DNA of 64,000 nt from NCBI GenBank assembly GCA_963665235.2, contig CAXXLX010000002.1:576001-640000 (forward strand). The letters run 5' to 3'. This stretch comes from Candidatus Poribacteria bacterium. Its GTDB lineage: Bacteria > Poribacteria > WGA-4E > WGA-3G. Below, in pieces: positions 6,362 through 59,369 of this stretch. The translations under genes were made by a program, and so were the position numbers. Each line of letters starts with the position of its first letter. The stretch's first letter is position 1. The notes under the pieces are model-generated. The model saw nothing but the letters and a program-made list of their open reading frames with translations, was not told where the DNA came from and searched no databases.

Positions 6362-6434
6362 GGAAAAAAGCATTCTAACTAATGTACACTAAACTTTGGA
6401 CAATTTTCGGGAGGCACAACGTTCTTGTCAAAGG

Positions 6435-7148
6435 GGTAGGTGGAAGGTTGGAAGAATGGAAGGGTGGAGGAGGGGAAGAGGGTTTTGAGGCGCAGCAGAG
6501 ATATGCTTAGCATCACAATCCTCTTGCTAACTGCTAATGGTTTCCAACATTCTATAAACATTCCGCCCCGCTGGGGCTAGTTTGTGGGATGGTTGCGGTG
6601 TTCTATAAACATTCCACCCCGCTGGGGAAACTGGACTTTTGCACATTAGGGACTATTTTCTGGTATTTGTAACGTGAGCTTGATAATAAATGTCCGTTTG
6701 TGCTAACCTCTATAAACATATCGTCCTTGAGGAGCGGGAAACCGTTTGCCCGAATACTGGGACTAAGAGTTTTGGCGTTAGCGGCTGTTTCTATAAATAT
6801 ATCGTCCCTACGGGACTAGGAGTCGGAGGGAAACGTCCTCTCTGTCACGATTAAACATTCTAGGACGGTGAGTCCCTACGGGACTAGGAGTCGGACGGAA
6901 ACGGACCTTCTATAAACATATCGTCCTTAAGAGCGGGAAACCGTTGGTTTCCCGAATACTGGGACTAAAGAGACTTTTTTCAAACTCACGTTTGTGCACG
7001 AAACAGGTCGGCAAAGAAACTCTTAATTCCGCGTTCTCCGCGATAATCCGTGATTCAGACAACACAAGCGAAATCCACCCTTCCACCCTTCCATTCTTCC
7101 ACCCTTCCACCCTTCCACTATCCTTTGTGCAAAAACTTTACACACTCC
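6435..7148. repeat. Composite intergenic repeat cluster: TGGAAG microsatellite, about 6 REP-like CTATAAA(C/T)AT...hairpin units, and one MITE end
   Basis: Units such as TTCTATAAATATATCGTCCCTACGGGACTAG and TTCTATAAACATTCCGCCCCGCTGGGGCTAG. Segment 7030-7148 is the reverse complement homolog of the left arm of the MITE at 34388 (GTGTGTAAAGTTTTTG...TGGAAG...GGATTTCGC..TGTGTTGTCTGAAT). Confidence 0.8.
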
Positions 7149-7221: not shown

Positions 7222-8274
7222 ATGTATAAAATCGGACTCATCCCTGGTGACGGCATCGGCCCCGAAGTGACCAGCGAAGCGATGAAGGTCTTCGGGGCCG
7301 CAGCCGCACAAGCAGGGCTCCAATACGAAACCGTTGAATACGATGTCGGGGGGGACCGTTATCTCGCTACAGGAGAGGTGTTACCGGACTCGGTATTGGA
7401 AGAACTACGACAACTTGACGCTATCTATCTAGGGGCTATCGGACATCCCGATGTCAAACCCGGTATTTTAGAGAAAGGGATTCTGCTAAAGGTCCGCTTT
7501 GAACTCGATCTCTACATAAACCTACGCCCGGTTAAACTTTATCCAGGCGTGCCCACACCGCTGAAGGACAAAGGCCCAGAGGACATCGATTTTATCATTG
7601 TTCGCGAAAATACGGAGGGATTATACGCGGGTATCGGCGGGTTTTTGAAACGCGGCACACGCGATGAGGTTGCCATTCAGGAGATGATTAACACCTACAA
7701 AGGCGTTGAACGGTGTGTCCGCTACGCGTACGAGCTCACACAGAAACGCAATAAGGAAAATACGTTGACACTCTGCGATAAAGCGAATGTGCTAACATAC
7801 GCCCACGATTTGTGGCGGCGCGTCTTCGATGAGGTCGGAGAAGATTATCCAGACATTAAAAAGGAATACGCCTTTGTCGATGCCACGACTATGTGGATGG
7901 TCAAAAACCCGGAATGGTTCGATGTGATTGTGACATGCAATATGTTCGGCGATATTATCACGGACCTCGGGGCGATGATTCAGGGAGGCATGGGGGTTGC
8001 AGCTTCAGGCAATTTGAACCCAGAAAGCGTGGCAATGTTCGAACCGATTCACGGGTCAGCCCCACGCTACACCGGCAAAAACCAGATTAACCCAATCGCA
8101 GCGATTGGCGCAGCCGGCATGATGCTCGAACACCTTGGGTATTCGGAAGCCGCCGCAAATGTTGACAAATCTATCAGCAACTTGCTTGCAAGCGGAAAAA
8201 TTAAAGACCTCGGTGCCGGACGGATGGGATACACAACCGAAGAGGTTGGCGACATGCTCGCCGAAGGCCTATAA
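7222..8274 (+). CDS. leuB: 3-isopropylmalate dehydrogenase (isocitrate/isopropylmalate dehydrogenase family)
   Basis: [49 protein letters not shown] before ATG 7222. Confidence 0.85.
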
Positions 8275-8281
8275 ACTTGCC

Positions 8282-8537
8282 CTCTTCTGTAGGAGCGTGC
8301 TGTGCACGCGATACTCTTCTGTAGGAGCGTGCTGTGCACGCGATACTCTTCTGTAGGAGCGTGCTGTGCACGCGATACTCTTCTGTAGGAGCGTGCTGTG
8401 CACGCGATACTCTTCTGTAGGAGCGTGCTGTGCACGCGATACTCTTCTGTAGGAGCGTGCTGTGCACGCGATACTCTTCTGTAGGAGCGTGCTGTGCACG
8501 CGATACTCTTCTGTAGGAGCGTGCTGTGCACGCGATA
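8282..8537. repeat. Eight perfect head-to-tail copies of a 32-bp GTAG-type REP unit
   Basis: CTCTTCTGTAGGAGCGTGCTGTGCACGCGATA x8 with no spacers. Each unit has GTAG plus a GCGTGC-TGT-GCACGC hairpin. Lies between convergent genes. Confidence 0.95.
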
Positions 8538-8564
8538 TTAAGGCGCGGACTCAGAACACGCGTC

Positions 8565-9335
8565 TCACGCCAATTGCGCTGTAAAATTAATCCGATCTGA
8601 ATTGCGGTTCCAGCGATTGAAGGTGTACATGTCGTAAACACTCAACGTTTTATAACCTGCCTCCTTGAGGAGACGCGTCACTGTGTCTACTTCAAAGATT
8701 GTTTGCTGGTGTACCTCTTCAAACCTATGAAATAGGTCGCCTTCTCGGATAAAAAAGGTCAGGGAGGTCTGGCATATTTTGCTATAATAGAAATAGCTAT
8801 TTTTCCAGATGTAGGAATAATCGTCGTGATTTTCTGAGAAGGTTTTGTTGTGAAAATGCTCGACAATATTCCGTTCGGTCGTCACGTCGAAGATAAACAG
8901 CCCACCTGGGGCGAGGTGCGCTGAAACCGTCTGGAAGACGTTGCTGAGGTCGGTTTCGGTGCGGGCATAGTTGATGCTATCGTACGTGCAAAGGATTGCG
9001 TCAAACTGCTGCTCGAGGTCAAAGTAGCACATGTCGCCTTGATGGAATGCGATATCCACATTGTGTGTTTCCGCCTTTTCTTGCGCGATGTGCAACATAC
9101 CTGCTGCCCTATCTATACCGGTCATCTCGTAGCCTTTTGAGGCTAGCAGGACAGTCAACGTGCCTGTCCCGCATGCCACATCAAGGATACTAATCGGTTT
9201 AGAATCGTATTTGTCGAAGAGCGACTCAATGTAATTGCCCCAGCGGATGTAGTTGACGTTTTTCATCATCCGGTCGTAGACGTGAGAAAATTTTTCATAA
9301 GGTAGGGTCGAGTGTCCCGGTATCACTTTATTCAA
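8565..9335 (-). CDS. Class I SAM-dependent methyltransferase
   Basis: ILDVACGTG motif I, GID...M, GDM, DSINY, LAPGGLFIFD. Confidence 0.9.
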   Translation of the reverse strand: MNKVIPGHSTLPYEKFSHVYDRMMKNVNYIRWGNYIESLFDKYDSKPISILDVACGTGTLTVLLASKGYEMTGIDRAAGMLHIAQEKAETHNVDIAFHQGDMCYFDLEQQFDAILCTYDSINYARTETDLSNVFQTVSAHLAPGGLFIFDVTTERNIVEHFHNKTFSENHDDYSYIWKNSYFYYSKICQTSLTFFIREGDLFHRFEEVHQQTIFEVDTVTRLLKEAGYKTLSVYDMYTFNRWNRNSDRINFTAQLA

Positions 9336-12132: not shown

Positions 12133-12696
12133 TTACTCGATGCCTAAAGGCTCCTGCCGGTGCCAAAACTCCTTCTGACTAATCAATGCGTACCACGGTT
12201 CAGAGGTCTCTAGCGTTCCATTTCCATCAAGATCCGCTTTCACAGTTTGTTTGGAATCTGCGGTAATCTTGTACTTCCTCCACGGTTGATCCTTAAGGTC
12301 AAATTTAAGGGCCATAGCTTTTTCCCAACTATCGACAGCATCAACCCAGCCATTAGTGTGTTCTTCTTTGAAATCATCAAAATTCGGTAATAGCGGACCC
12401 TCAATCTTGCTGGTGAAGTCAACGTAGTATCTGACACGGATGCGCTGTGGCCAATCGGGATGAACCCCTCCAGAATCATTGTACAGAACTGCCAGATGAC
12501 TACTAGAGACTTTCGGAAATTCATAGAAATACGCTACATAGAGATATCCGTATACGAACTTAAGGGTCCTGCCCATTCTGCAATCCCGAGCCCAAGTTTC
12601 ACCAGAGTGGGGCACTTGGTTTGAGTGAAGATGCGTTGGAACGAGACAAACTATCGCTATTAACCCGATTAGGGTTATCACTACTAAATGTTTCAC
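12133..12696 (-). CDS. Hypothetical secreted protein
   Basis: GTG start with AAGGAG RBS, N-terminal signal-like hydrophobic stretch, and a DLDGNG calcium-binding-like loop. Confidence 0.7.
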   Translation of the reverse strand: MKHLVVITLIGLIAIVCLVPTHLHSNQVPHSGETWARDCRMGRTLKFVYGYLYVAYFYEFPKVSSSHLAVLYNDSGGVHPDWPQRIRVRYYVDFTSKIEGPLLPNFDDFKEEHTNGWVDAVDSWEKAMALKFDLKDQPWRKYKITADSKQTVKADLDGNGTLETSEPWYALISQKEFWHRQEPLGIE

Positions 12697-12926: not shown

Positions 12927-13015
12927 TGCAACAACGAAAGCCCACGACGAAATGCTTCGTGCAAAACGAAGTTCATGCGGGCGCGAAAATATCGCAGGTT
13001 TCACATCCTGCAATA
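12927..13015 (-). terminator. Conserved structured leader block, copy 1 (small hairpin, 43-nt hairpin, U-rich tail)
   Basis: GCAGG-ATGTGAAA-CCTGC, then GCCCGCATGAACTTCGT-TTTGC-ACGAAGCATTTCGTCGTGGGC-TTTCGTTGTT. Homologous to 33810-33897, with substitutions that preserve pairing. Confidence 0.7.
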
Positions 13016-13039: not shown

Positions 13040-13189
13040 TTAACGAATGTAAAGTGGGGGGGGGAGAGCAGTTAAATGAAAGTAGACATGTGGACACACG
13101 CACTGCACACGTGCGTACGGTCGCTCATGTAACACGGGCGTGGATGGAATCAATTTTTGAATTGCGGTATCTCCATGTTGGTTTTTCAC
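13040..13189 (-). CDS. Putative 49-aa leader peptide with a poly-C (PPP) tract, copy 1
   Basis: GGGGATTTAATA-GTG start. MKNQHGDTAIQKLIPSTPVLHERPYARVQCVCPHVYFHLTALPPPLYIR*. C9 tract at 13056-13064. Confidence 0.55.
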   Translation of the reverse strand: MKNQHGDTAIQKLIPSTPVLHERPYARVQCVCPHVYFHLTALPPPLYIR

Positions 13190-13277: not shown

Positions 13278-13306
13278 ATTATATCCTAAGTTGCGGTAAA
13301 TGTCAA
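13278..13306 (-). promoter_or_regulatory. Perfect consensus sigma-70 promoter driving leader cassette copy 1
   Basis: TTGACA (13301-13306), 17 bp, TATAAT (13278-13283). Confidence 0.8.
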
Positions 13307-19649: not shown

Positions 19650-19896
19650 GCGCCTATAAACATTTCGCCCCTAAGGCGCAGGCTGTTTGCCCGAATACTA
19701 GAAGAAAGGTATCGCGTGCACGGTTTGCTCCTACAGTCGTGTGCACGGCACGCTCCTACAGTCGCGTGCACAGCACGCTCCTACATAAGAGGTGGACAGT
19801 CGCACGTGCACAGCACGCTCCTACATAAGAGGTGGACAGGCACGTGCACGGCACGCTCCTACATAACACGTTAAGGACAAAAACTTTACACACCTC
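19650..19896. repeat. REP cluster (5 GTAG-type units in reverse orientation), one REP with a loop insertion, and one MITE end
   Basis: Variants of CGTGCAC(A/G)GCACGCTCCTACA x5, the reverse complement of the 8282 unit. ...TGTTTGCCCGAATACT at about 19684-19699. CAAAAACTTTACACAC at about 19878-19893. Confidence 0.85.
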
Positions 19897-28178: not shown

Positions 28179-30971
28179 ATGTTTGATTTTCAATCTCCGC
28201 TCTTCCTCGGACTGCTTGCTGCGCTGCCGTTTATAGTCTTTGTACAACGGCGCACCACCGTCATTGCGTCGAAATGGCGGAAACGCGCTGTCTTCCTCCT
28301 CAGATGTGCCGCGCTTTTATGTGCAGTCCTTGCCCTGGCAAGCCTGCACCGAACGTATAAAGAACAACGCATAGCAGTAGCGTTTCTTATTGATGCATCC
28401 GATAGTATTGCCCCCTCTCAAAAAGAGGAAACCGTTAATCAGATAAACGCCGCCATTGCAAAATTGAAACCGACCGACCTATTTGGGGTTATCAGCTTTG
28501 CACGAGAAGCATCTATCCTCAGGGCGATGTTGCCGAAACGGGAACAATCTCACCTAATATCGTTGACAGCGGAGCCAACGGGGACAGGCGATGCCACCGA
28601 CATTCTCACTAGCCTTAAGCGTGCCCTTGAACTCCTGCCAGACAATTATCATCGGCGGATAGTGCTTTTCAGTGATGGCGGACATAACGCTGGACGGACC
28701 TCCCTCGAACATCATCTGCCGCTGTTCGCGGCGAGTGAGGTGGAAATATTTACCCTCCCCCTTCAAACCATTAAAGACGCAATTCGGATTCAAGAACTAC
28801 GACTGCCAAACCGGGTTCGAAAAGAGCAACGTTTTCCGGTACAAGCAATCGTCGAATCGGATGGAAGCATTCCGACTGTCACTGCCACGCTCTATCACAA
28901 CGGGGTTCCGATGCCTGAAATTGAATTCCCGTTGCAAAGTGGCAGAAATATATTGACGTTCCCTACACAACAGGTGTCTGAAGCTCGACCACACACGTAT
29001 CAACTACGGTTAAACGTAGGCGATACTATCCTTGAAAATAACCGGGCATATTCGGTTGTGCAATTTGCGGATAAACCGCACGCCCTCTATGTAGAACGCG
29101 ATTTGCAATATGCTGGAACGCTAAAGACACTCCTAGAGGAGAACGGTTTTGTGGTAAACGTGATTTCCGCTTCAGAGATGCCAACAGATTTAACTACGTT
29201 TCAACACTACGATGTGACTATCCTGAGCAACATTTCCGCAGATACGGTTTCAACAGCACAATTGAACGCCCTAGAGAGGTACGTCCGGGACCTCGGGCAC
29301 GGTTTAGTGGTTATCGGGGGAGATGAGGCTTTCGGACCCGGCGGCTATACAGGGACAGCGTTGGAACGTGCACTCCCCGTTGACATGACACCGCGGGAAC
29401 GGAAGGATGCTGTCGCGCTTGTGTTTGTACTTGATACATCGGGCAGCATGGCGAACTATGTCGGAACACAACGGAAGATTGACCTCGCTATTGAGGCGAT
29501 ACGCGCCGGAATTCATAACCTTAAACCAGCAGATGAGGCGGGAGTTATCGGGTTCAACGTTGATTCTCACGTTATTTCACAGCTCACATCTGACCATGAT
29601 ATGCTGAAAAAAGCGGTTGGACGACTCAAACCGACAGGCGGCACAACGATGATGGCGGAGGCTATCAATGAAGCAGGCGACATGCTCAAAGCCGCTGATG
29701 CGAAACGGAAACACATTGTCCTCTTGTCGGATGGTAAATCTGATGGAGAACGTTCCGAATTTATGGAGATAGCGAAAAATATCGCTGCGGCGCGTATCGG
29801 TATTACGACAATCGCCATCGGCGACGCTGCGGAAGCACTCCTGAACGATATTGCAGATGTCGGCGGTGGACGCACCGTGAGGGTTCAAAACCTCCAAGAA
29901 TTGCCCAAAATTTTGATGAATACTGTCCGAGAAACACAGGATTATATTGTACAGGAACAGGTCCAACCGGAAATCGCCGCTCATAGGCCACCAATTTTAG
30001 AGGGGATAGACGTTTTGCCTCCGCTATATGGTTACGTAGCAACAGCGGAGAAGACAGCTGCACAGGTTTTTATAAAATCTCGTCATAAGGACGAACCGCT
30101 CCTGGCTGGGTGGCATCACGGATTAGGAAAATCTGTTGCATGGACATCGGATATCAAACCCGCGTGGAGTAAAACGTGGATGTCCTGGGAAAACTTTGGC
30201 AAGTTTTGGGGACAGGTTATCAATTGGACACTCCCCGCAGACGATGCAGACGCAGATTTTGAACTCATCGTCTCACCCCGCAACGGCAGCGCGGAAGTGG
30301 TCATTGATGCACAACGGCCATCACATCTCGGTTATACTGTCCACGTTGCAGGACCGAACGGCACCAGCGAAACCGTTGAGATGCAACAGGTTACGTCAAA
30401 GCGTTACAGCGGCACATTTCGGACAAACGTCAGCGGCACCTATATTGTCACCGCGAAACAGGAGGGAGATGCACGCACTCGCACCGAAACGTTGGCGCGT
30501 TCCTATCCTGCCGAATATGCTGATTTTAGCGTTAATGAAGGGCTGCTGAAGATGCTTTCTGAACGGACTGGCGGTGTTTATGAACCGACGCTCTCTCAGA
30601 TAACAGCACCTGCCGGAACACCTATTGAAAAACGTGTGTCGATGTTTCAAATGTTGCTAGGCGTTGCTGTTGTCCTATTTGTGTTGGAGATGATTCTCCG
30701 GCGGTTCAGCATAGCGAGCGGATATCTAACTCAACTTCGGGCACAACTGCGTGGACAACAATCTGAAAGGGTTGCACCGGAAACGTTGACACGTCTCACG
30801 CAGAGGAAGGCTGATATGGACACAATTTCCGAACGGTCGGTGCAGGCAACGGTGGAAACAGTCGTGCCGCGCGAACGGACGATGGCGGATAAGGCACAGT
30901 CGCAGTCAACTGAAAAGGCGATAACGCGGCTATTGGCTGTGAAAAGAAAAGCGCGTTCGGTATCGGAGTAG
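28179..30971 (+). CDS. Membrane protein with two VWA domains and a GATase-like domain
   Basis: BatA-like N-terminal TM, MIDAS motifs DASDS and DTSGS, LSDG, GLVVIGG..AFG.GGY, and a C-terminal TM ending LEMILRR. Confidence 0.85.
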   Translation: MFDFQSPLFLGLLAALPFIVFVQRRTTVIASKWRKRAVFLLRCAALLCAVLALASLHRTYKEQRIAVAFLIDASDSIAPSQKEETVNQINAAIAKLKPTDLFGVISFAREASILRAMLPKREQSHLISLTAEPTGTGDATDILTSLKRALELLPDNYHRRIVLFSDGGHNAGRTSLEHHLPLFAASEVEIFTLPLQTIKDAIRIQELRLPNRVRKEQRFPVQAIVESDGSIPTVTATLYHNGVPMPEIEFPLQSGRNILTFPTQQVSEARPHTYQLRLNVGDTILENNRAYSVVQFADKPHALYVERDLQYAGTLKTLLEENGFVVNVISASEMPTDLTTFQHYDVTILSNISADTVSTAQLNALERYVRDLGHGLVVIGGDEAFGPGGYTGTALERALPVDMTPRERKDAVALVFVLDTSGSMANYVGTQRKIDLAIEAIRAGIHNLKPADEAGVIGFNVDSHVISQLTSDHDMLKKAVGRLKPTGGTTMMAEAINEAGDMLKAADAKRKHIVLLSDGKSDGERSEFMEIAKNIAAARIGITTIAIGDAAEALLNDIADVGGGRTVRVQNLQELPKILMNTVRETQDYIVQEQVQPEIAAHRPPILEGIDVLPPLYGYVATAEKTAAQVFIKSRHKDEPLLAGWHHGLGKSVAWTSDIKPAWSKTWMSWENFGKFWGQVINWTLPADDADADFELIVSPRNGSAEVVIDAQRPSHLGYTVHVAGPNGTSETVEMQQVTSKRYSGTFRTNVSGTYIVTAKQEGDARTRTETLARSYPAEYADFSVNEGLLKMLSERTGGVYEPTLSQITAPAGTPIEKRVSMFQMLLGVAVVLFVLEMILRRFSIASGYLTQLRAQLRGQQSERVAPETLTRLTQRKADMDTISERSVQATVETVVPRERTMADKAQSQSTEKAITRLLAVKRKARSVSE

Positions 30972-30994
30972 CGGTTGATGTGCAGGTTTATTAT

Positions 30995-31560
30995 AGAGGG
31001 AAGGGTGGAAGAGTGGAAGCGGAGGAAGGGTGGAAGCGGAGGGTGGAAGGGATGGAAGGGATGGAAGGATGGAAGGGTGGAAGCGGAGGAAGGATGGAAG
31101 GGATGGAAGGATGGAAGAGTGGAAGCGGAGGAAGGATGGAAGGGGTGGAAGGATGGAAGAGTGGAAGCGGAGGAAGGGTGGAAGCGGAGGAAGTTGTCAG
31201 AATCGCGGATTATCGCGGATTACGCGGATTGTAAATTGGCGATTGGCGATTAGCAAGAGGGAGAGGACATCGCTTATTTGTCAGCATCGCGGGTTATCGC
31301 GGATTTATCGGATTACGCGGATTTTAAATTAGCGATTGGCAATTGGCGATTAGCAATTGGAAACCAGAGAAAGAGGGTTTTGACGCGCGGCAGAGATATG
31401 CTTAGCATCACAACCTTCTTGCTAAATGCTAACAGTTTCCATAAGCCATAAGCCAATATTCTATAAACATACCGCCCTTGAGGAGCGGGAAACCGTTTGC
31501 CCGAATACTGGGGCTAATACCGATTTCTGTAGGAGCGAGCTGTGCTCGCGATTTTCTGTG
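30995..31560. repeat. Composite repeat cluster: purine-rich TGGAAG/GGAAGG tandem array (about 200 bp), CGCGGATT and GCAATTGGCGATTA repeats, REP units
   Basis: Units of about 42 bp (GAGTGGAAGCGGAGGAAGGATGGAAGGGATGGAAGGATGGAA). A block GCAGAGATATGCTTAGCATCACAA is shared with 6493-6516. GTAGGAGCGAGCTGTGCTCGCGA REP at about 31529. Confidence 0.85.
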
Positions 31561-31680: not shown

Positions 31681-32919
31681 TTATTCAGCACGTTTTAGCT
31701 TGCTCCAGGTCGTAACCAGTTTTCCAGCAGGCTCAACTGATGTGCCAACTGCGGAGGGTTTATAGACACCTTCGGTGACGGAGCCAGTGGCAGCAATACC
31801 GACGTGCATGCCCCATCCGCCGCCACGTTCACTCACCTTGACAAGCAATAGGTTATCGCCTTTTTGCAGGTTGACGGAGAATTCATCTTGCCATCTGCCG
31901 CGTCCCCGGTTCGTTGCGTTTGTATGAACGACTTCACCGTTGAGCCAGACCTTGATAGAATCGTCGCTGCCGACTGCCATTTTGACCCCTTCCATCGCTT
32001 CTTCTGCGACAAGGGTAGTGAGTGCGTAGGACGAAACGTCGTTGAAATCCTCGTTTTCTGTTACCTTGAGGTCGAAGAGCATCTTGTTGATGTCGCCGTT
32101 ATCGGGAAGTACGCCAACGATCCAATCGTAATCGCCAACGCTGTCGCCTTCGGTCGCGCCATCTTTAGCGACCATTTCTTCGGTAACAGTGTCTTTACTG
32201 GCAACTGCAAGGGAATCAATATTGGTAGAATTTTGTCCGCCTTGATTGACTTCGGTTGGGGCAATAACCCATAGCCACTCACCCGTAATATCCACTATGG
32301 GAGGAGGTGGCGCTTTGTATACGGCGGTAACATCAGCCTCAATACCGACGTGCATACCCCATCCGCCGCCACGTTCGCTAACCTTGACAAGCAACAGATT
32401 ATCGCCTTGGTTCAGATTAACTTGGAACGTGTCTTGCCACATGGAGCGTCCCCGGTTCGTTGCGTTGGTAAAAACGTTTTCACCGTTGAGCCAGACTTTG
32501 ATGGAGTCATCACTCCCGGTTCGCATCGTAACATCATTCTGTGCTGACGCTGATACCAACGTAATGAGTGCGTAGGACGAAACGTCGTTGAAATCCTCGT
32601 TTTCTGTTACCTTGAGGTCGAAGAGCATCTTGTTGATGTCGCCGTTCGAGGGTAATTCACCGAGGATCCACTTATAATCACCGACAGCGTCGCCTTCGTT
32701 TGCACCATTTTTGGCGACTGCTTCTTCGGTGACAGCATTGTCGCTGGCAACTGCGAGCGAGTCAATATTGGTAGAATTTTGTCCGCCTTGGTTCGCTTCA
32801 GTTGTCGCAATAACCCATAGCCACGGACCGAGAATCTGTTCTTGAGCATTAGCGGTGAGCGTCATAACTGAAAGGCTCATCAGAAGTGCTAATCCTATTA
32901 CACATAATTTCCTGTACAT
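31681..32919 (-). CDS. Secreted protein with two tandem copies of an about 180-aa PA14/galactose-binding-like beta-sandwich domain
   Basis: Signal peptide. Repeat GPWLW...GSDDSIKVWLNGE...L..GDNLLLVKVSERGGGWGM. C-terminal SVEPAGKLVTTWSKLK. GGAGG RBS before ATG 32919. Confidence 0.85.
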   Translation of the reverse strand: MYRKLCVIGLALLMSLSVMTLTANAQEQILGPWLWVIATTEANQGGQNSTNIDSLAVASDNAVTEEAVAKNGANEGDAVGDYKWILGELPSNGDINKMLFDLKVTENEDFNDVSSYALITLVSASAQNDVTMRTGSDDSIKVWLNGENVFTNATNRGRSMWQDTFQVNLNQGDNLLLVKVSERGGGWGMHVGIEADVTAVYKAPPPPIVDITGEWLWVIAPTEVNQGGQNSTNIDSLAVASKDTVTEEMVAKDGATEGDSVGDYDWIVGVLPDNGDINKMLFDLKVTENEDFNDVSSYALTTLVAEEAMEGVKMAVGSDDSIKVWLNGEVVHTNATNRGRGRWQDEFSVNLQKGDNLLLVKVSERGGGWGMHVGIAATGSVTEGVYKPSAVGTSVEPAGKLVTTWSKLKRAE

Positions 32920-33069
32920 TAAAAACCTCCATAAAATAGAAAATAAGCGATAAAATTTAATGTCGTTCATCCTCACGCGTCAATTTCCGATTCAATTTTT
33001 AAGGATAAACAACTCTGTTTACAATTAGTTTTATAACCACAATTAAATAGTTAAAAGGAACTAGCAGAA

Positions 33070-33750
33070 TTAGTGCGCGTTCCTGATTTTCGCCCACTGC
33101 GTTGCCAATTTTCCAGCGGGTTCAACTGGGAGATACCGGTCAAAATTCACATGGTGGTCTACTGCTGCATCTACACCGACGTGCATGCCCCATCCGCCGC
33201 CACGTTCACTGACTTTCACCATCAACAGATTTTCCCCCTGTTTCAGGTCAATTTTGAACGTGTCTTGGTATTGTGCGCGTCCACGGTTTGTTGCATTGGT
33301 AAAAACGTCTTCACCATTGAGCCAGACTTTGATGGAGTCATCGCTCCCGGTTCGCATCGTGACACCCTCCTGCTTTTTAGCAGATTTCAGCATGATAAGG
33401 GCATAGGACGTAATATCATTCATATCCTCACCTGCTACCATGCGCGCATCAAAGAGCATTTTGTTAATGTCACCATTGGCCGGGAGTGTGGCTTCGGTCC
33501 ACTCATAATTACCGACAGCATCCCCCTCTTTCGCGCCATTTTGTGATACTTTATCCTCGGTAACCTTATTGTCGCTGGCAACTGCAAGTGAGTCAATATT
33601 GGTTGAATTCTGACCGCCTTGGTTAGGTTCGGTTGGGGCAACCATCCAGAGCCACGGACCGAGAATCTGTTCTTGAGCATCAGCGGTAAGTGTCATAACT
33701 GAAAGACACATCAGAGATGCCAATGCCATCAGACATAATTTTTTGTACAT
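33070..33750 (-). CDS. Single-domain paralog of the 31681-32919 secreted protein
   Basis: Near-identical signal peptide (MYKKLCL..MCLSVMTLTADAQEQILGPWLW) and the same domain. C-terminal PVEPAGKLATQWAKIR. AAGGAGG RBS before ATG 33750. Confidence 0.85.
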   Translation of the reverse strand: MYKKLCLMALASLMCLSVMTLTADAQEQILGPWLWMVAPTEPNQGGQNSTNIDSLAVASDNKVTEDKVSQNGAKEGDAVGNYEWTEATLPANGDINKMLFDARMVAGEDMNDITSYALIMLKSAKKQEGVTMRTGSDDSIKVWLNGEDVFTNATNRGRAQYQDTFKIDLKQGENLLMVKVSERGGGWGMHVGVDAAVDHHVNFDRYLPVEPAGKLATQWAKIRNAH

Positions 33751-34058
33751 AAAAATAAAACCTCCTTTGAAATAATAAAATAAGAATGATGCAGATCGCC
33801 CCCCAATACTGCAACAACAAAAGCCCACGACGCAACACTCCGTGCAAAACGAAGGGCGCGCGGGCGCGAAATATCACAGGTTGTAAATCCTGCAATACGC
33901 TGTAAAATAATTAACGGATAAGAAAATTTAATAAGGGGGGGGTTTAACAGAAAGCTAAAAACAAAACCGGCAGGCAGTGTGCAAGCACGATTCCCCGCAT
34001 ATCGGGGATGCCTGGTACTCTTATTTATGGATAGTGATTTCGTTCGTAGGTCTTGCAT
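33729..34058 (-). CDS. Putative leader ORF, copy 2, reading through the poly-C tract and the terminator-like hairpin and overlapping the downstream start codon
   Basis: TAGGATTTGATA-ATG start. C8 tract at 33935-33942. Shares LII and SRPxxLRFARSxxSWAFVVA with the frame of 12846-13103. Confidence 0.55.
   Translation of the reverse strand: MQDLRTKSLSINKSTRHPRYAGNRACTLPAGFVFSFLLNPPLIKFSYPLIILQRIAGFTTCDISRPRALRFARSVASWAFVVAVLGGDLHHSYFIISKEVLFLCTKNYV
33810..33897 (-). terminator. Conserved structured leader block, copy 2
   Basis: GCAGG-ATTTACAA-CCTGT, then GCCCGCGCGCCCTTCGT-TTTGC-ACGGAGTGTTGCGTCGTGGGC-TTTTGTTGTT (43-nt hairpin at 33823-33865). Lies 60 nt upstream of ATG 33750. Confidence 0.7.
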
Positions 34059-34257
34059 TATCAAATCCTAAGTTGTTTCTGAAGAGCTCGGTCTGTTTTT
34101 ACAAGTTGACGCAATATCTTTGCATTCTCCGATCCGTTGTTCCGCGTGTTTTACCTTGTTCTGATACCGTGGATAACAGCCAAATTCGAAAACAACAAGA
34201 AAACAGGTTCCACCGATGAACCATTTATCGAATGCGATATCGCGAATTACATTTTTA

Positions 34258-34346
34258 ATTTTACAAAAATTATTAAAAAAAGTCAAGCTGTTTTTCAAAA
34301 AAATTAATCTGTAAATTATTATATCAAAATTTCAAAAAAAAGTCAA
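34258..34346 (-). promoter_or_regulatory. Two tandem sigma-70 promoters upstream of leader cassette copy 2
   Basis: TTGACT (34341-34346), 17 bp, TATAAT (34318-34323), and TTGACT (34281-34286), 17 bp, TAAAAT (34258-34263). Confidence 0.7.
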
Positions 34347-34387
34347 GCTTAACAGTCATCAAAGGGTGTGTCTTAACGGTCATCAAA

Positions 34388-34857
34388 GGGTGTGTAAAGT
34401 TTTTGTACTATGATAGAGGGAAGGATGGAAGATTGGAAGATTGGAAGGGGGGAAGGATGGATTTCGCGCGTGTGTTGTCTGAATTGCGGATTTATCGGAT
34501 TTATCGGATTTTAAGATGCGTAACAATAGAAGGTTTGTGATTATGAGCTAGTGTGTTGTGTTTTCTATAAAGATACCGCCCCGCTGGGGCTAGATTGTCT
34601 GGCGTTCACATTAAACATGTCGCCCCGATACGCCTAGTCCCGTAGGGACGATATATTTATAGAAGCAGATGTTTCCCCAACCCCTAGTCCCGTAGGGACG
34701 ATATATTTATAGAGAAAACGGACATTTATTTTCAAACTCACGTTTAAGTACAAAAATTTTACACACCCTTTCACATGCAGCACCGAGAACCAAATGTTAC
34801 ACTTTGTGTCAAAAGTGTAACATTTACACCTGTTTTGTACAAAAACTTTACGCACCC
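34388..34857. mobile_element. 470-bp non-autonomous MITE with 21-bp TIRs and a 9-bp target-site duplication
   Basis: GGGTGTGTAAAGTTTTTGTAC ... GTACAAAAACTTTACGCACCC, flanked by GTCATCAAA at 34379-34387 and 34858-34866. An extra internal TIR copy lies at about 34748-34768. Carries REP units and TGGAAG repeats. Confidence 0.85.
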
Positions 34858-48908: not shown

Positions 48909-50003
48909 ATGAAAAACAGATTGTTTTCAATATTGATAGTTCAGTTTATAGCACTCACATTTCTAAGCTGTAGTCTCATCCCTGATCCGCAGATAGAGCA
49001 TCTCCCTGATGGTGCAAAAGCAGAGCATAGGATGGGGTTTATCAATAACATCCAATATTCGCCGGATGGCACGAAACTCACGGTTGCTAGTTCGTCCGGT
49101 ATTTGGCACTACGATTCACAGACAGGTAAGGAACTTGGCGTATTCCCCGCGTATAACATGCATAGCCTTGGGTTTATGCCCATGAGCGTGGCGTATAGTC
49201 CAGATGGCAAAACAGTCGCAAGTGGATGTAGGGATGGAACCATTCGTCTGTGGGATACCGACACAAGTATACCCCAACATACACTTTCTGGGCATAAGAA
49301 AGCGGTCTGGAGCGTGGCGTATAGTCCAGATGGCAAAACAGTCGCAAGTGGCGGTCAGGATAAAACGCTCCGGCTGTGGGATGCGAACATAGGACAACAC
49401 CTCCGAAAACTCAAAGGACATAAGGGGGCGGTCTTAAGTGTTACCTACAGTCCTGATGGCAGGATGATCGCTACTGGAAGTGAAGACACTACGCTCCGTC
49501 TATGGGATGCGAACACAGGACAACACCTCCGAACATTCAAAGGACATAAGGGGCATGTTCGGAGCGTAACGTTTAGTCCGGATAGCAGTACTATCGCAAG
49601 TGCCAGTCGGAACAATACCATCACTACCATTTGTCTGTGGGATGTAAACAGCGGACGACAAATCCGAACACTCTCTGGGTATACGAGGATAATGAATCAT
49701 AAGGATTCAAATGTAGAAACCTGGGCCTCTGAATCTAATAGTGTGGCGTTTAGTCCGGATGGAAGGACTATAGGTAGTGCTAGTTTTGGTGAAACCCATC
49801 AGTGGGATGCGAATACGGGACAACACCTCCGAAAACTCGAGGGGCCCCAGGGGACTCCGTGTTGGGTCTTTAACGTGGCATTCAGTCCGGATGGAAAGAC
49901 TATTGTAAGTACGGGTACGAGGGAAGTCAATCAATGGGATGCGAACACAGGACAATACCTACGAACACTCATAAAAGTTAAGCCTTACACTAACAAGAAT
50001 TAG
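48909..50003 (+). CDS. WD40-repeat lipoprotein
   Basis: Lipobox FLSC and repeated GH...V.SV.YSPDG..ASG..D.T.RLWD units. Confidence 0.92.
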   Translation: MKNRLFSILIVQFIALTFLSCSLIPDPQIEHLPDGAKAEHRMGFINNIQYSPDGTKLTVASSSGIWHYDSQTGKELGVFPAYNMHSLGFMPMSVAYSPDGKTVASGCRDGTIRLWDTDTSIPQHTLSGHKKAVWSVAYSPDGKTVASGGQDKTLRLWDANIGQHLRKLKGHKGAVLSVTYSPDGRMIATGSEDTTLRLWDANTGQHLRTFKGHKGHVRSVTFSPDSSTIASASRNNTITTICLWDVNSGRQIRTLSGYTRIMNHKDSNVETWASESNSVAFSPDGRTIGSASFGETHQWDANTGQHLRKLEGPQGTPCWVFNVAFSPDGKTIVSTGTREVNQWDANTGQYLRTLIKVKPYTNKN

Positions 50004-58159: not shown

Positions 58160-59369
58160 AGAGTTTGTTGATCTGGCTCTGCATGATTGCATACGCACCA
58201 ATACCAAAGGTGAAGAAAAGGGACAACATATAAACAACCGGAAAACTGGAAGTGACGTACATACCATACTTATCCCTTATCTCATTGATACTGCATGCCA
58301 TCTGATACTCTGTATATATAGTGTAGATACCGCAGGTAAGAAAACCAAGCCCGACAGTTCTCCAAAAAGAGAAATTCTCTCTTCCTAACCAACCGTTGAG
58401 TATTGACATCTGTTTCGATGTCCAAAAAATACCGTAGATAAAACACGTAATTAAAGTGAAAAAAACGCGGCTTCTGATACCAAGCCTGCCTTTGGATTCC
58501 GGATAGGGATAACCGTTGGTATGAGTTTCAAGATTCTGTTCAGCGATAATCTCCGGTGAGCGTTGATCGATATTCGGTGTTGGTGTTCCTTCTGAAGGTG
58601 TGTCTGTTGCGTCCGTCTCATGTGCCGTGGTTGCGGTTGCGGTTGTTGGTTCTGGTGAGCGTTGATCGATATTCGGTGTTGGTGTTCCTTCTGAAGGTGT
58701 GTCTGCCGAGGTTGCCTGATGTGCCGTGGTGGTAGTTGCGGTTGTCGGTTCTGGTGAGCGTTGATCGATATTTGGTGTTGGTCTTTCTTCTGAAGGTGTG
58801 TCTGATGAGACTGTCTGCAGGGACCGTGGTGGCAGTTGCGGCTCTTGATAGCGTCGGTCAATCTGCTTGATATTCGTTGAAATATCCGCTATGACATAGG
58901 AAAATTGTAGGATCCCTGCCCCCAGTAAATGAAAGAGAAAAGACAAAGCAAGCAAAACGAGTACGATCCATCCAAGCGTCAGGGCACCGAAAATTGAGCA
59001 GACCAAGAATAGAATCGCGCCTCCACTAAATCCGATAAAGGCGACTTCGCCTAAAAGGCGCGTGAGATGCGATTCTTCACCAAGTGAGGCGATTTTTTTT
59101 GCTCTGTCCCAAAACAGCATAGCCATGGTTATACCAACGATACCGATGATGGCAAGACCGAAGAATGTTCCAATGATGGTAAACGCCTGTGTGACAATGC
59201 CTGAACGTCTTATAAATGTCAGCACAAGTGTGAGGATCGCAATGCCCAACACGAAGGTAGTAACCAAAGTAAAGACTCCCGAGATTTTGACAGACAATGC
59301 TGCCCATTTTCGGAATTGATGCCCGGACTCCAATGAATCAATCCATTCAACAATGCGACTTAAAAACAT
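58134..59369 (-). CDS. Multi-pass membrane protein with an N-terminal 4-TM domain, a Pro/Thr-rich repeat linker and a C-terminal DUF4234-like domain
   Basis: AGGAG RBS before ATG 59369. LITCFIYGIFW / LTCGIY..Y / MQSQINK pattern. The N-terminus is paralogous to 62122-62670. Confidence 0.75.
   Translation of the reverse strand: MFLSRIVEWIDSLESGHQFRKWAALSVKISGVFTLVTTFVLGIAILTLVLTFIRRSGIVTQAFTIIGTFFGLAIIGIVGITMAMLFWDRAKKIASLGEESHLTRLLGEVAFIGFSGGAILFLVCSIFGALTLGWIVLVLLALSFLFHLLGAGILQFSYVIADISTNIKQIDRRYQEPQLPPRSLQTVSSDTPSEERPTPNIDQRSPEPTTATTTTAHQATSADTPSEGTPTPNIDQRSPEPTTATATTAHETDATDTPSEGTPTPNIDQRSPEIIAEQNLETHTNGYPYPESKGRLGIRSRVFFTLITCFIYGIFWTSKQMSILNGWLGRENFSFWRTVGLGFLTCGIYTIYTEYQMACSINEIRDKYGMYVTSSFPVVYMLSLFFTFGIGAYAIMQSQINKLYDEYSGGE
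58555..58804. repeat. About 2.5 copies of a 99-bp (33-aa) intragenic tandem repeat
   Basis: GGTGAGCGTTGATCGATATT.. recurs at 58555, 58654 and 58753. Encodes DTPSExxPTPNIDQRSPE.... Confidence 0.9.

Follow-up and report, generated by a model that had tools for sequence, protein, structure and literature searches.

A candidate frame-dependent leader-ORF/terminator attenuator preceding secreted- and membrane-protein genes in one family of Candidatus Poribacteria

The stretch of DNA analysed here, a window of 64,000 nucleotides (nt) from a Candidatus Poribacteria genome (assembly GCA_963665235.2), harbors two copies of a leader element, each of which brings together promoter-like sequences, a leader open reading frame (ORF) that crosses a homopolymeric stretch of cytosines (the C run), and a series of hairpins, the last of which resembles an intrinsic terminator; a gene whose product carries a hydrophobic N-terminus follows. 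Comparison with related copies suggests that the element is a cis-regulatory leader, in which the frame taken across the C run could decide whether the ribosome stops before the terminator or travels over it. All coordinates are positions within the window, and both elements are read on the minus strand. Copy 2, whose leader ORF is of the long type, is organized as follows.

34346-34318, minus strand: promoter-like TTGACT-17-TATAAT, sigma-70-like (11/12 match, with TG)
34286-34258, minus strand: promoter-like TTGACT-17-TAAAAT, sigma-70-like (10/12 match)
34056..34068, minus strand: GGATTTGATA, resembling a ribosome-binding site (RBS), then the leader ATG (34058-34056); motif kept in most copies
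34064/34058..33729, minus strand: leader ORF in its long state, spanning the C run, hairpin H1 and the terminator-like hairpin T
33944..33958, minus strand: hairpin H0 (TTAGC-TTTCT-GTTAA), immediately 5' of the C run
33935..33942, minus strand: C8 run, encoding Pro-Pro in the present frame
33906..33916, minus strand: conserved CGTTAATTATT, including TAA 33913-33911
33871..33898 (approximate), minus strand: hairpin H1, 9 base pairs, from folding
33810..33865, minus strand: GC-rich terminator-like hairpin T of 17-18 base pairs (33865-33823), then UUUUGUUGUUGCA
33070..33750, minus strand: downstream gene (ATG 33750), co-directional, with a hydrophobic N-terminus

The promoter-like pair sits approximately 200-290 nt 5' of the leader start, the leader ORF ends 22 nt within the downstream gene, and H1 and T together have a folding energy of -36.8 kcal/mol (z -2.6). 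The TAA of CGTTAATTATT serves as the stop of most copies with a short leader ORF, and copy 2 itself would use it if its run held one C fewer. The downstream gene has no Pfam family above cut-off in a Pfam scan; it shares a near-identical, signal-peptide-like N-terminus with a tandem paralogue (31681-32976), and the two paralogues, which together occupy 31681-33828, also have 300-nt internal repeats in common (families D3 and D4), again with no Pfam family above cut-off.

Copy 1 displays the same order of elements with a short leader ORF.

13278..13306, minus strand: perfect promoter match TTGACA-17-TATAAT, from a pattern match
13040..13189, minus strand: leader ORF in its short state, start GTG 13189, preceded by GGATTTAATA
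13064-13056, minus strand: C9 run, within the leader ORF
13015-12990, minus strand: hairpin H1, from folding
12982-12940, minus strand: terminator-like hairpin T, then UUUCGUUGUUGCA (H1 to end, 12927..13015; repeat family D20)
12133..12696, minus strand: downstream gene, co-directional, with a hydrophobic N-terminus

Here the leader peptide ends in ...LPPPLYIR and the ORF stops at the TAA of CGTTAATTATT (13042-13040), H1 and T fold with -32.3 kcal/mol (z -2.2), and the interval from the element to the downstream gene contains a promoter-like TTTACA-17-TAAAAT (12825-12797). Each feature that the initial annotation of the window had listed for the two copies was located at its place on the minus strand.

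The element, which measures approximately 300 bases, was found in 25 copies at E<1e-10 in the genome from which the window derives (5.3 Mb, 47.6% G+C) by BLAST followed by two rounds of nhmmer, which also returned three weaker fragments. The architecture first described for two copies is real and far beyond chance, but it is present 25 times in the genome rather than twice. Two partial copies on contig C1 (at approximately 2714502 and 2891287), consisting of the C run and its flanks only and matched weakly by nhmmer, may be decayed copies. Within the taxonomic family, a covariance model of the 3' domain of the element (186 positions, 24 pairs) detects it in 53/61 genomes (52/60 if the genome of the window is set aside) and in all six genera, with 1-25 matches per genome (1-24 in the other genomes); this family-level search listed 150 matches and counted 313 more across the 61 genomes. 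In a sample of the phylum, the element is present in 71 of 81 genomes of the same family (f1) and is weakly matched in 2/19 from a second family (f3), while the covariance model gave no match in six other families, represented by 20 genomes. A permissive pattern scan over genome records that bear a name listed at least 117 loci, five of which also match the hidden Markov model of the element; these five, among the matches listed, all belong to records named Candidatus Poribacteria bacterium, the remaining 112 being chance matches in unrelated taxa, and the scan is silent on absence elsewhere. Rfam, consulted to exclude known motifs as had been suggested, yielded no match at gathering score across the window and none at E<=1 in 33700-34400. 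The element can be regarded as a well-supported new structured leader family, even if the idea of a switch fails.

Evidence for a conserved RNA structure derives from a model-fitted alignment of 74 matches from the same genome and related ones; 73 of these are distinct copies, and 71 of the 73 have a C run of at least five. Four helices are supported: H0 just 5' of the run, H1, and the outer and inner helices of T. Taken together they are paired in 87.2% of cells, compared to 76.6% in shuffles, none of 500 of which reaches the observed value, and pairing drops to 34-47% of cells when partners are slid by 1-3 columns. Changes on both sides are seen in 22 of the 24 pairs, with 164 such cells versus 50.6 in shuffles, in an alignment that was fitted to the same structure and hence leans towards it. 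By helix, two-sided changes affect 5/5 pairs of H0 (77% of cells paired) and 8/8 pairs of H1 (84%), and the two helices of T are paired in 96.5% and 91.9% of cells. The region between leader ORF and gene is thus occupied by a covarying, GC-rich hairpin of 17-18 pairs followed by UUUUGUUGUU, that is, a predicted terminator, and the conserved hairpins initially proposed from two copies find covariation in related ones. RNAalifold applied to a plain MAFFT alignment had returned only four pairs, since the hairpin arms were misaligned there, and it was replaced by a hand-drawn structure and the covariance model.

The leader ORF is maintained as well. All 25 copies of the genome possess a start codon and a frame, approximately 40 codons long and in each case at least 35, that stays open into the C run, most start codons being placed after GGGG/GGAG-type ribosome-binding sites; in the wider set an ORF crosses the run in 68 of 71 copies, and the motif GGGGAnTTnAnA followed by ATG or GTG is kept in most copies. 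Within the 102 nt 5' of the run, 61/71 copies have exactly one sense frame that lacks stops and 68/71 have at least one, compared to at least one in 24/71 for the antisense control over the same 102 nt. The encoded peptide, in contrast, is unconstrained though the frame is maintained, because differences between 12 paralogue pairs are distributed nearly evenly over codon positions 1, 2 and 3 (87, 78 and 99); the changed codons comprise 57 synonymous and 150 non-synonymous cases, which is approximately neutral. Furthermore, the frame in which the conserved nucleotide motif ATTCAGAAA is read varies with the subgroup, and indels move conserved nucleotide motifs from frame to frame among copies. 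At the level of sequence comparison, these data demonstrate that the leader ORF, an element of the initial annotation that proves to be a selected feature, is under selection for its translation and not for its peptide, a pattern typical of regulatory leader ORFs and one that attenuators share. The possibility that it encodes a conserved small protein was also considered, and is ruled out by the neutral amino-acid evolution.

Tabulation of the tract lengths, which the initial annotation had proposed, shows that they are not invariant, ranging from C5 to C16 in the 71 copies: C5 in three copies, C6 in three, C7 in four, C8 in 11, C9 in 19 and C10 in 19, followed by C11 in five, C12, C13 and C15 in two each, and C16 in one. 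Uninterrupted runs of at least eight are found in 61/71 copies and interrupted ones in four, and only 2 of the 73 distinct copies are without a run. The codons of the run are exclusively CCC, whereas other synonymous sites of the leader ORF drift freely; a need for proline alone would be expected to give mixed CCN codons, and therefore it is the homopolymer itself that seems to be kept, under constraint at the nucleotide level.

The 68 leader ORFs fall into two main states. In 47 of them the ORF is short, with a stop 1-30 nt after the run and tails such as PPPLHIR, PPPIYIR or PPLFHIR, mostly ending at the TAA of CGTTAATTATT; 19 are long, extending at least 140 nt past the run and over both H1 and T (copy 2 is one of these), and two are intermediate. 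The genome of the window itself has 15 short and 10 long copies. The two states are a single slip apart: a shift of +1 or -1 brings 46/47 short copies into a frame open for at least 140 nt, each of the 19 long copies can reach a short frame by such a shift, and a one-base change therefore flips the state, in silico, in 65/66 copies. The early stops that had been predicted for copy 2 with a C7 or a C9 tract agree with its post-tract stops (21, 4, none). In the region from +30 to +150 after the run, 84/129 frames are open in sense and 34/129 in antisense (43 copies), with 57 sense stop triplets observed versus 124 +/- 7 in dinucleotide shuffles, and 148 antisense ones versus 183 +/- 9. As judged from these counts, stop codons on the sense strand are avoided across the terminator.

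The history of the copies indicates that states have changed. At one orthologous locus, two species of the same genus carry C10 in the short state and C9 in the long one (L040/L048). A tree of 66 copies, from whose construction the run was omitted, requires at least 12 state changes, compared to 16.5 +/- 1.4 for shuffled labels, and a count as low as 12 is reached in 0.55% of 2000 label shuffles; since the state is clustered on the tree, it appears to be partly inherited, yet it has flipped many times. In one subgroup of paralogues the runs are C10, C8, C10 and C7 and all four copies are short, even though each has just one short frame out of three, which points to selection on the frame. By sequence comparison, then, toggling between states over evolutionary time is demonstrable.

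The genes that follow the element have properties in common. The first downstream ORF of at least 100 amino acids is co-directional in 24 of the 25 copies of the genome, and the 25th copy precedes a co-directional DUF4007 gene that starts at +56; a hydrophobic N-terminal segment is present in 20-21 of these 25 downstream ORFs, versus 30-34% of 3396 background ORFs of at least 200 amino acids. Copies are hence not randomly oriented, and their suggested orientation towards secreted-protein genes is consistent with these figures. A Pfam scan that took in 20 of the 25 downstream proteins identified families above cut-off in nine, namely Laminin_G_3 in five and F5_F8_type_C, 3keto-disac_hyd, FGE-sulfatase and DUF4007 once each, and none above cut-off in the other 11. 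The secreted LamG, discoidin and sulfatase-modifying proteins of this lineage presumably mediate host interaction. Subgroups of the element track paralogous genes, three LamG genes being associated with one subgroup and four small membrane proteins with another, so that leader and gene duplicate as a unit; the idea that the switch is "portable," put forward in the initial annotation, is accordingly doubtful.

Upstream promoter matches of at least 10/12 within 300 nt are present in 12/25 copies of the genome, eight being perfect (12/12). Promoter-like sites between element and gene are found in 3/25 copies, all of them short, a distribution (3/15 short versus 0/10 long) whose numbers are too small to interpret. 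In five loci of relatives belonging to one genus (L033, L056, L058, L045 and L053), a second hairpin followed by a T-run, formed by TTGCATCAC...GTGATGCAACTTTTTTGTTTGA, lies approximately 20-90 nt past the element and is succeeded by a -35/-10-like pair (TTGAAA/TTGACA as -35-like motif), a layout that looks like a tandem terminator plus a separate promoter for the downstream gene. Sequencing runs were examined as assembled contigs, one of which stems from a metatranscriptomic (RNA-library) run, X7. This contig (791 nt) covers 33187-33969 without a break, leading from inside the gene through T and H1 to past the C run of copy 2. Upstream of 33969 the X7 run offers no cover, and cover by the DNA run X5 has holes; uncovered parts do not count as evidence. 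It is compatible with read-through in the long-state copy 2, as weak evidence, given that it is a contig, that DNA carry-over is possible and that it represents a long-state copy only.

Taken together, these observations can be accommodated by a lineage-specific cis-regulatory leader that operates as a frame-dependent leader-ORF/terminator attenuator before secreted or membrane-protein genes, a reading that we favor tentatively, at somewhat less than even confidence. In such a leader, a promoter would be combined with a leader ORF that is translated and with an intrinsic terminator. A ribosome translating the leader ORF would reach the C run, where its frame would be set or changed. In one frame it would halt at the TAA of CGTTAATTATT, approximately 25 nt 5' of H1, and the terminator would be free to fold, ending transcription (short, OFF or low). 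In another, it would translate over H1 and T, and a ribosome coupled to the polymerase would suppress the hairpin, allowing transcription to enter the gene (long, ON). It has been reported that ribosomes suppress intrinsic terminators, and that polyproline stretches and elongation factor P (EF-P) modulate this suppression (PMC5021804). The slip could occur at the level of DNA replication, in which case it would be heritable, by slippage of the polymerase, or by +1 ribosomal frameshifting at CCC-C, the last of which would be sensitive to EF-P and to methylation of tRNAPro (m1G37); +1 frameshifts at successive Cs are reported to be held down by both m1G37 and EF-P (PMC6335274). Frame-dependent passage over a terminator had been the central proposal of the initial annotation, and its anatomy, its two states and the reachability of one from the other by a single base stand; that passage of the ribosome controls termination is what we infer from them.

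A wider and more speculative form of this proposal is that the copies constitute a regulon, in which up to approximately 25 secreted or surface-protein genes per genome in one Candidatus Poribacteria family are controlled by frame-switch attenuators and gated by slips of the C run, whether heritable or of the +1 ribosomal or transcriptional kind, the latter tuned by EF-P or by modification of tRNAPro. This is possible, and we hold it with somewhat less assurance than an attenuator as such; if true, the expression of surface proteins would be coupled either to switching at random or to the condition of the translation machinery.

Several points weigh against a frame-dependent attenuator. Truncated folds of the 25 copies of the genome revealed no conserved antiterminator pairing, the 5' arm of T being unpaired in 11 copies, paired with the body of the ORF in 10, with H1 in two and elsewhere in two. 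The state predicted to terminate is that of 47/68 copies, so that either leaky termination or a putative slip mechanism would be needed. The tract of copy 2 shows no length variation in the X1, X5 and X7 contigs, and contigs hide minority variants. The copies share ancestry, such that stop-codon counts are not independent trials, and the antisense control shares this kinship but not the same sequence constraints. Moreover, three short copies and several copies of relatives, in which the element is followed by a promoter-like site or by another terminator-like hairpin, suggest that at least some downstream genes may be transcribed independently. Finally, the X7 contig possibly reflects DNA carry-over, and a contig that extends over two genes is not proof of a single transcript.

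Among alternative explanations, the one that survives best is an attenuator that senses proline or EF-P and to which the frame is irrelevant: a pause at the proline codons, its length set by the supply of charged tRNAPro or by EF-P activity, would decide termination by way of coupling or of alternative RNA folds. Whatever the frame, the run specifies at least Pro-Pro, and the short copies share a recurring tail, (P)n-x-[HYN]-[IN]-R-stop. Precedents are provided by Salmonella mgtP, a proline-codon leader ORF in the mgtCBR leader (PMC3641672), and by the reported role of EF-P in keeping up transcription through intrinsic terminators placed after polyproline (PMC5021804). The genome also has an EF-P gene, a single match at 569088-569231 of contig C2 whose location approximately 7 kb before the start of the window is probably a coincidence. 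Stalling on polyproline, which the initial annotation had offered as its own alternative, nevertheless fails when taken alone to account for a pure homopolymer, since codons other than CCC are absent and 61/71 runs are uninterrupted stretches of at least eight while other synonymous sites drift. In addition, pausing on the run or at the TAA would leave the ribosome approximately 25-45 nt away from H1, the truncated folds offer no conserved alternative pairing, the avoidance of sense stops in all frames over the terminator is left unexplained, and the downstream genes are not proline-related, unlike the genes of an amino-acid-sensing attenuator, which lie in the pathway of the amino acid sensed. 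We regard a sensor of this kind as unlikely.

A second possibility, the proposal of the initial annotation in its strong form, is rapid heritable phase variation, in which the C runs would be hypermutable contingency loci that create subpopulations toggling each secreted-protein gene. The runs are long enough to slip and, in silico, their length sets the state; the range of C5-C16 among copies, the one-C difference in length and state between the orthologues L040 and L048, the 12 or more state changes on the 66-copy tree and the surface or secreted nature of the targets in a probable symbiont lineage would all fit. Against this, the run of copy 2 is C8 wherever it is seen: in an X1 contig (765 nt, no gaps), in two X5 contigs representing two variants (189 nt each, no gaps, one with 12 substitutions) and in the X7 contig, from a strain approximately 94% identical and thus some 6% diverged, where eight gap letters correspond to four indels elsewhere. 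Contig depth is high at 34340-34800 and 33135-33400, where other repeats and paralogues account for it. Copies of like state group together on the tree, with 12 changes versus the 16.5 +/- 1.4 of shuffled labels, and the C10/C8/C10/C7 subgroup is short in all four copies. Neither a genome-wide excess of runs nor weak mismatch repair is apparent: MutS (a frame of 927 amino acids) and MutL (666 amino acids) are intact, and the 88 G/C runs of at least eight, of which 23 lie in elements and 65 outside them, are close to a rough chance estimate of approximately 80 for a genome of the same size and composition. Rapid ON/OFF switching as initially envisaged is not supported by these data, and we consider it quite unlikely.

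A third view holds that the element is an autonomous small RNA (sRNA), or a dual-function one, whose C-rich stretch pairs with the G-rich ribosome-binding sites of its targets, and that the adjoining gene is a mere neighbor or a co-duplicated target. C-rich seeds are typical of some Gram-positive sRNAs, and the strong upstream promoter matches (eight of them perfect), the terminator-like end of the element, the second terminator-like hairpin followed by a -35-like TTGAAA/TTGACA in some relatives' copies and the promoter-like site 3' of copy 1 are all consistent with a separate transcription unit. A trans-acting sRNA would combine its own promoter and terminator with freedom from coding constraint, whereas here one reading frame is maintained in 61/71 copies and is equipped with RBS and start codon. 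The element keeps a fixed orientation towards the gene downstream, its subgroups vary in step with the families of the downstream genes, a promoter-like site between element and gene is missing from 22/25 copies, and the X7 RNA-library contig bridges the terminator, all of which make such an sRNA improbable. A small-protein gene family, or a mobile repeat resembling a miniature inverted-repeat transposable element that merely carries a promoter, might be suggested by the many copies per genome and by ORFs of 45-110 codons, and is very improbable indeed in the face of neutral amino-acid evolution, of indels that shift nucleotide motifs between frames, of copies that always lie 5' of, and co-directional with, a gene, and of a vertical distribution within one taxonomic family.

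Were the frame-dependent attenuator to hold, it would join leader-peptide attenuation with homopolymer slippage, and would give this uncultivated lineage its first defined family of cis-regulatory RNA. No account of the element, or of a terminator gated by a homopolymer within a leader ORF, was found in the literature searched, in which papers on Poribacteria were not singled out, so that the basis for claiming absence is weak. The natural copies already form a mutational series, with C5-C16 tracts and two states, that is open to direct testing. Annotation of the family is also needed, because gene callers would call the leader ORFs hypothetical proteins of 45-115 amino acids.

The window contains a number of other repeats. 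A tandem array of eight 32-nt units, TTCTGTAGGAGCGTGCTGTGCACGCGATACTCT, with a palindrome occupies 8250-8601, and single or triple relatives of the unit are located at 31525-31557 and 19765-19877; from its sequence, this array looks like an intergenic repeat family of the repetitive extragenic palindromic (REP) type. Purine-rich, microsatellite-like intergenic stretches of GGAAG/GGATGGAAG lie at 30957-31188, 6432-6478 and 34409-34447, one such stretch being directly 5' of the copy 2 promoters, and they are taken to be multi-copy repeats because every DNA run covers them at very high contig depth. Another repeat, TTCTATAAACATTCCGCCCCGCTGGGGC..., is 36 nt long and includes a small GC hairpin; it is present six times in the window (6550-6824, 19652-19687, 31459-31494 and 34563-34598) and in many copies across the genome, where it often lies beside other G/C runs. 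The regions 49184-49985 and 58552-58848 of the window hold six repeats with a period of approximately 126 nt (start-to-start spacing of 126-177 nt), which look WD40-like by eye (...SPDG...), and three 99-nt tandem repeats.

The proposed attenuator can be compared with several known systems. Salmonella possesses mgtP and also mgtL, a proline-codon leader ORF in the mgtA leader. The element resembles both, as far as the available accounts of these leaders go, in having a short translated ORF with consecutive proline codons within a long 5' leader, before a structure that stops transcription, and in that translation of the ORF counts and the peptide does not. It differs from them in that its proline codons together make up a C-only homopolymer that varies in length, in that its copies have two ORF end points, before or beyond the terminator, and in that approximately 25 copies per genome stand before unrelated secreted-protein genes; no antiterminator pairing was found for it, and in sequence it is unrelated to the Salmonella leaders.

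Phase variation of surface-protein genes by homopolymers is known from Neisseria and Helicobacter. It has also been described for the poly-G ON/OFF genes of C. jejuni (PMC11955535), with which, on the evidence of that source, the element has in common a G/C run of at least eight and an association with surface or secreted-protein genes, the effect of its length being an in silico one. Unlike in homopolymer phase variation, the run of the element belongs to a leader ORF upstream, outside both the gene and its promoter, and would act through a terminator; within-population variation was not seen in the copy 2 contigs, mismatch repair genes are present and G/C runs are not over-represented.

The long copies recall the work on EF-P and intragenic terminators by Elgamal, Artsimovitch and Ibba (2016, PMC5021804), in that polyproline is followed by an intrinsic terminator within the same ORF. 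That study, in its accessible parts, concerns engineered constructs and candidate E. coli loci, whereas the element is natural, conserved and provided with an alternative short frame. Lastly, +1 frameshifting at CCC-C (PMC6335274), for which the accessible text of the source describes no regulatory use in gating a terminator, is for the element only a candidate level at which the slip could take place; the likeness lies in the successive Cs of the run, which form a classic +1-prone site whose rate of frameshifting is reported to be set by the state of the translation machinery.

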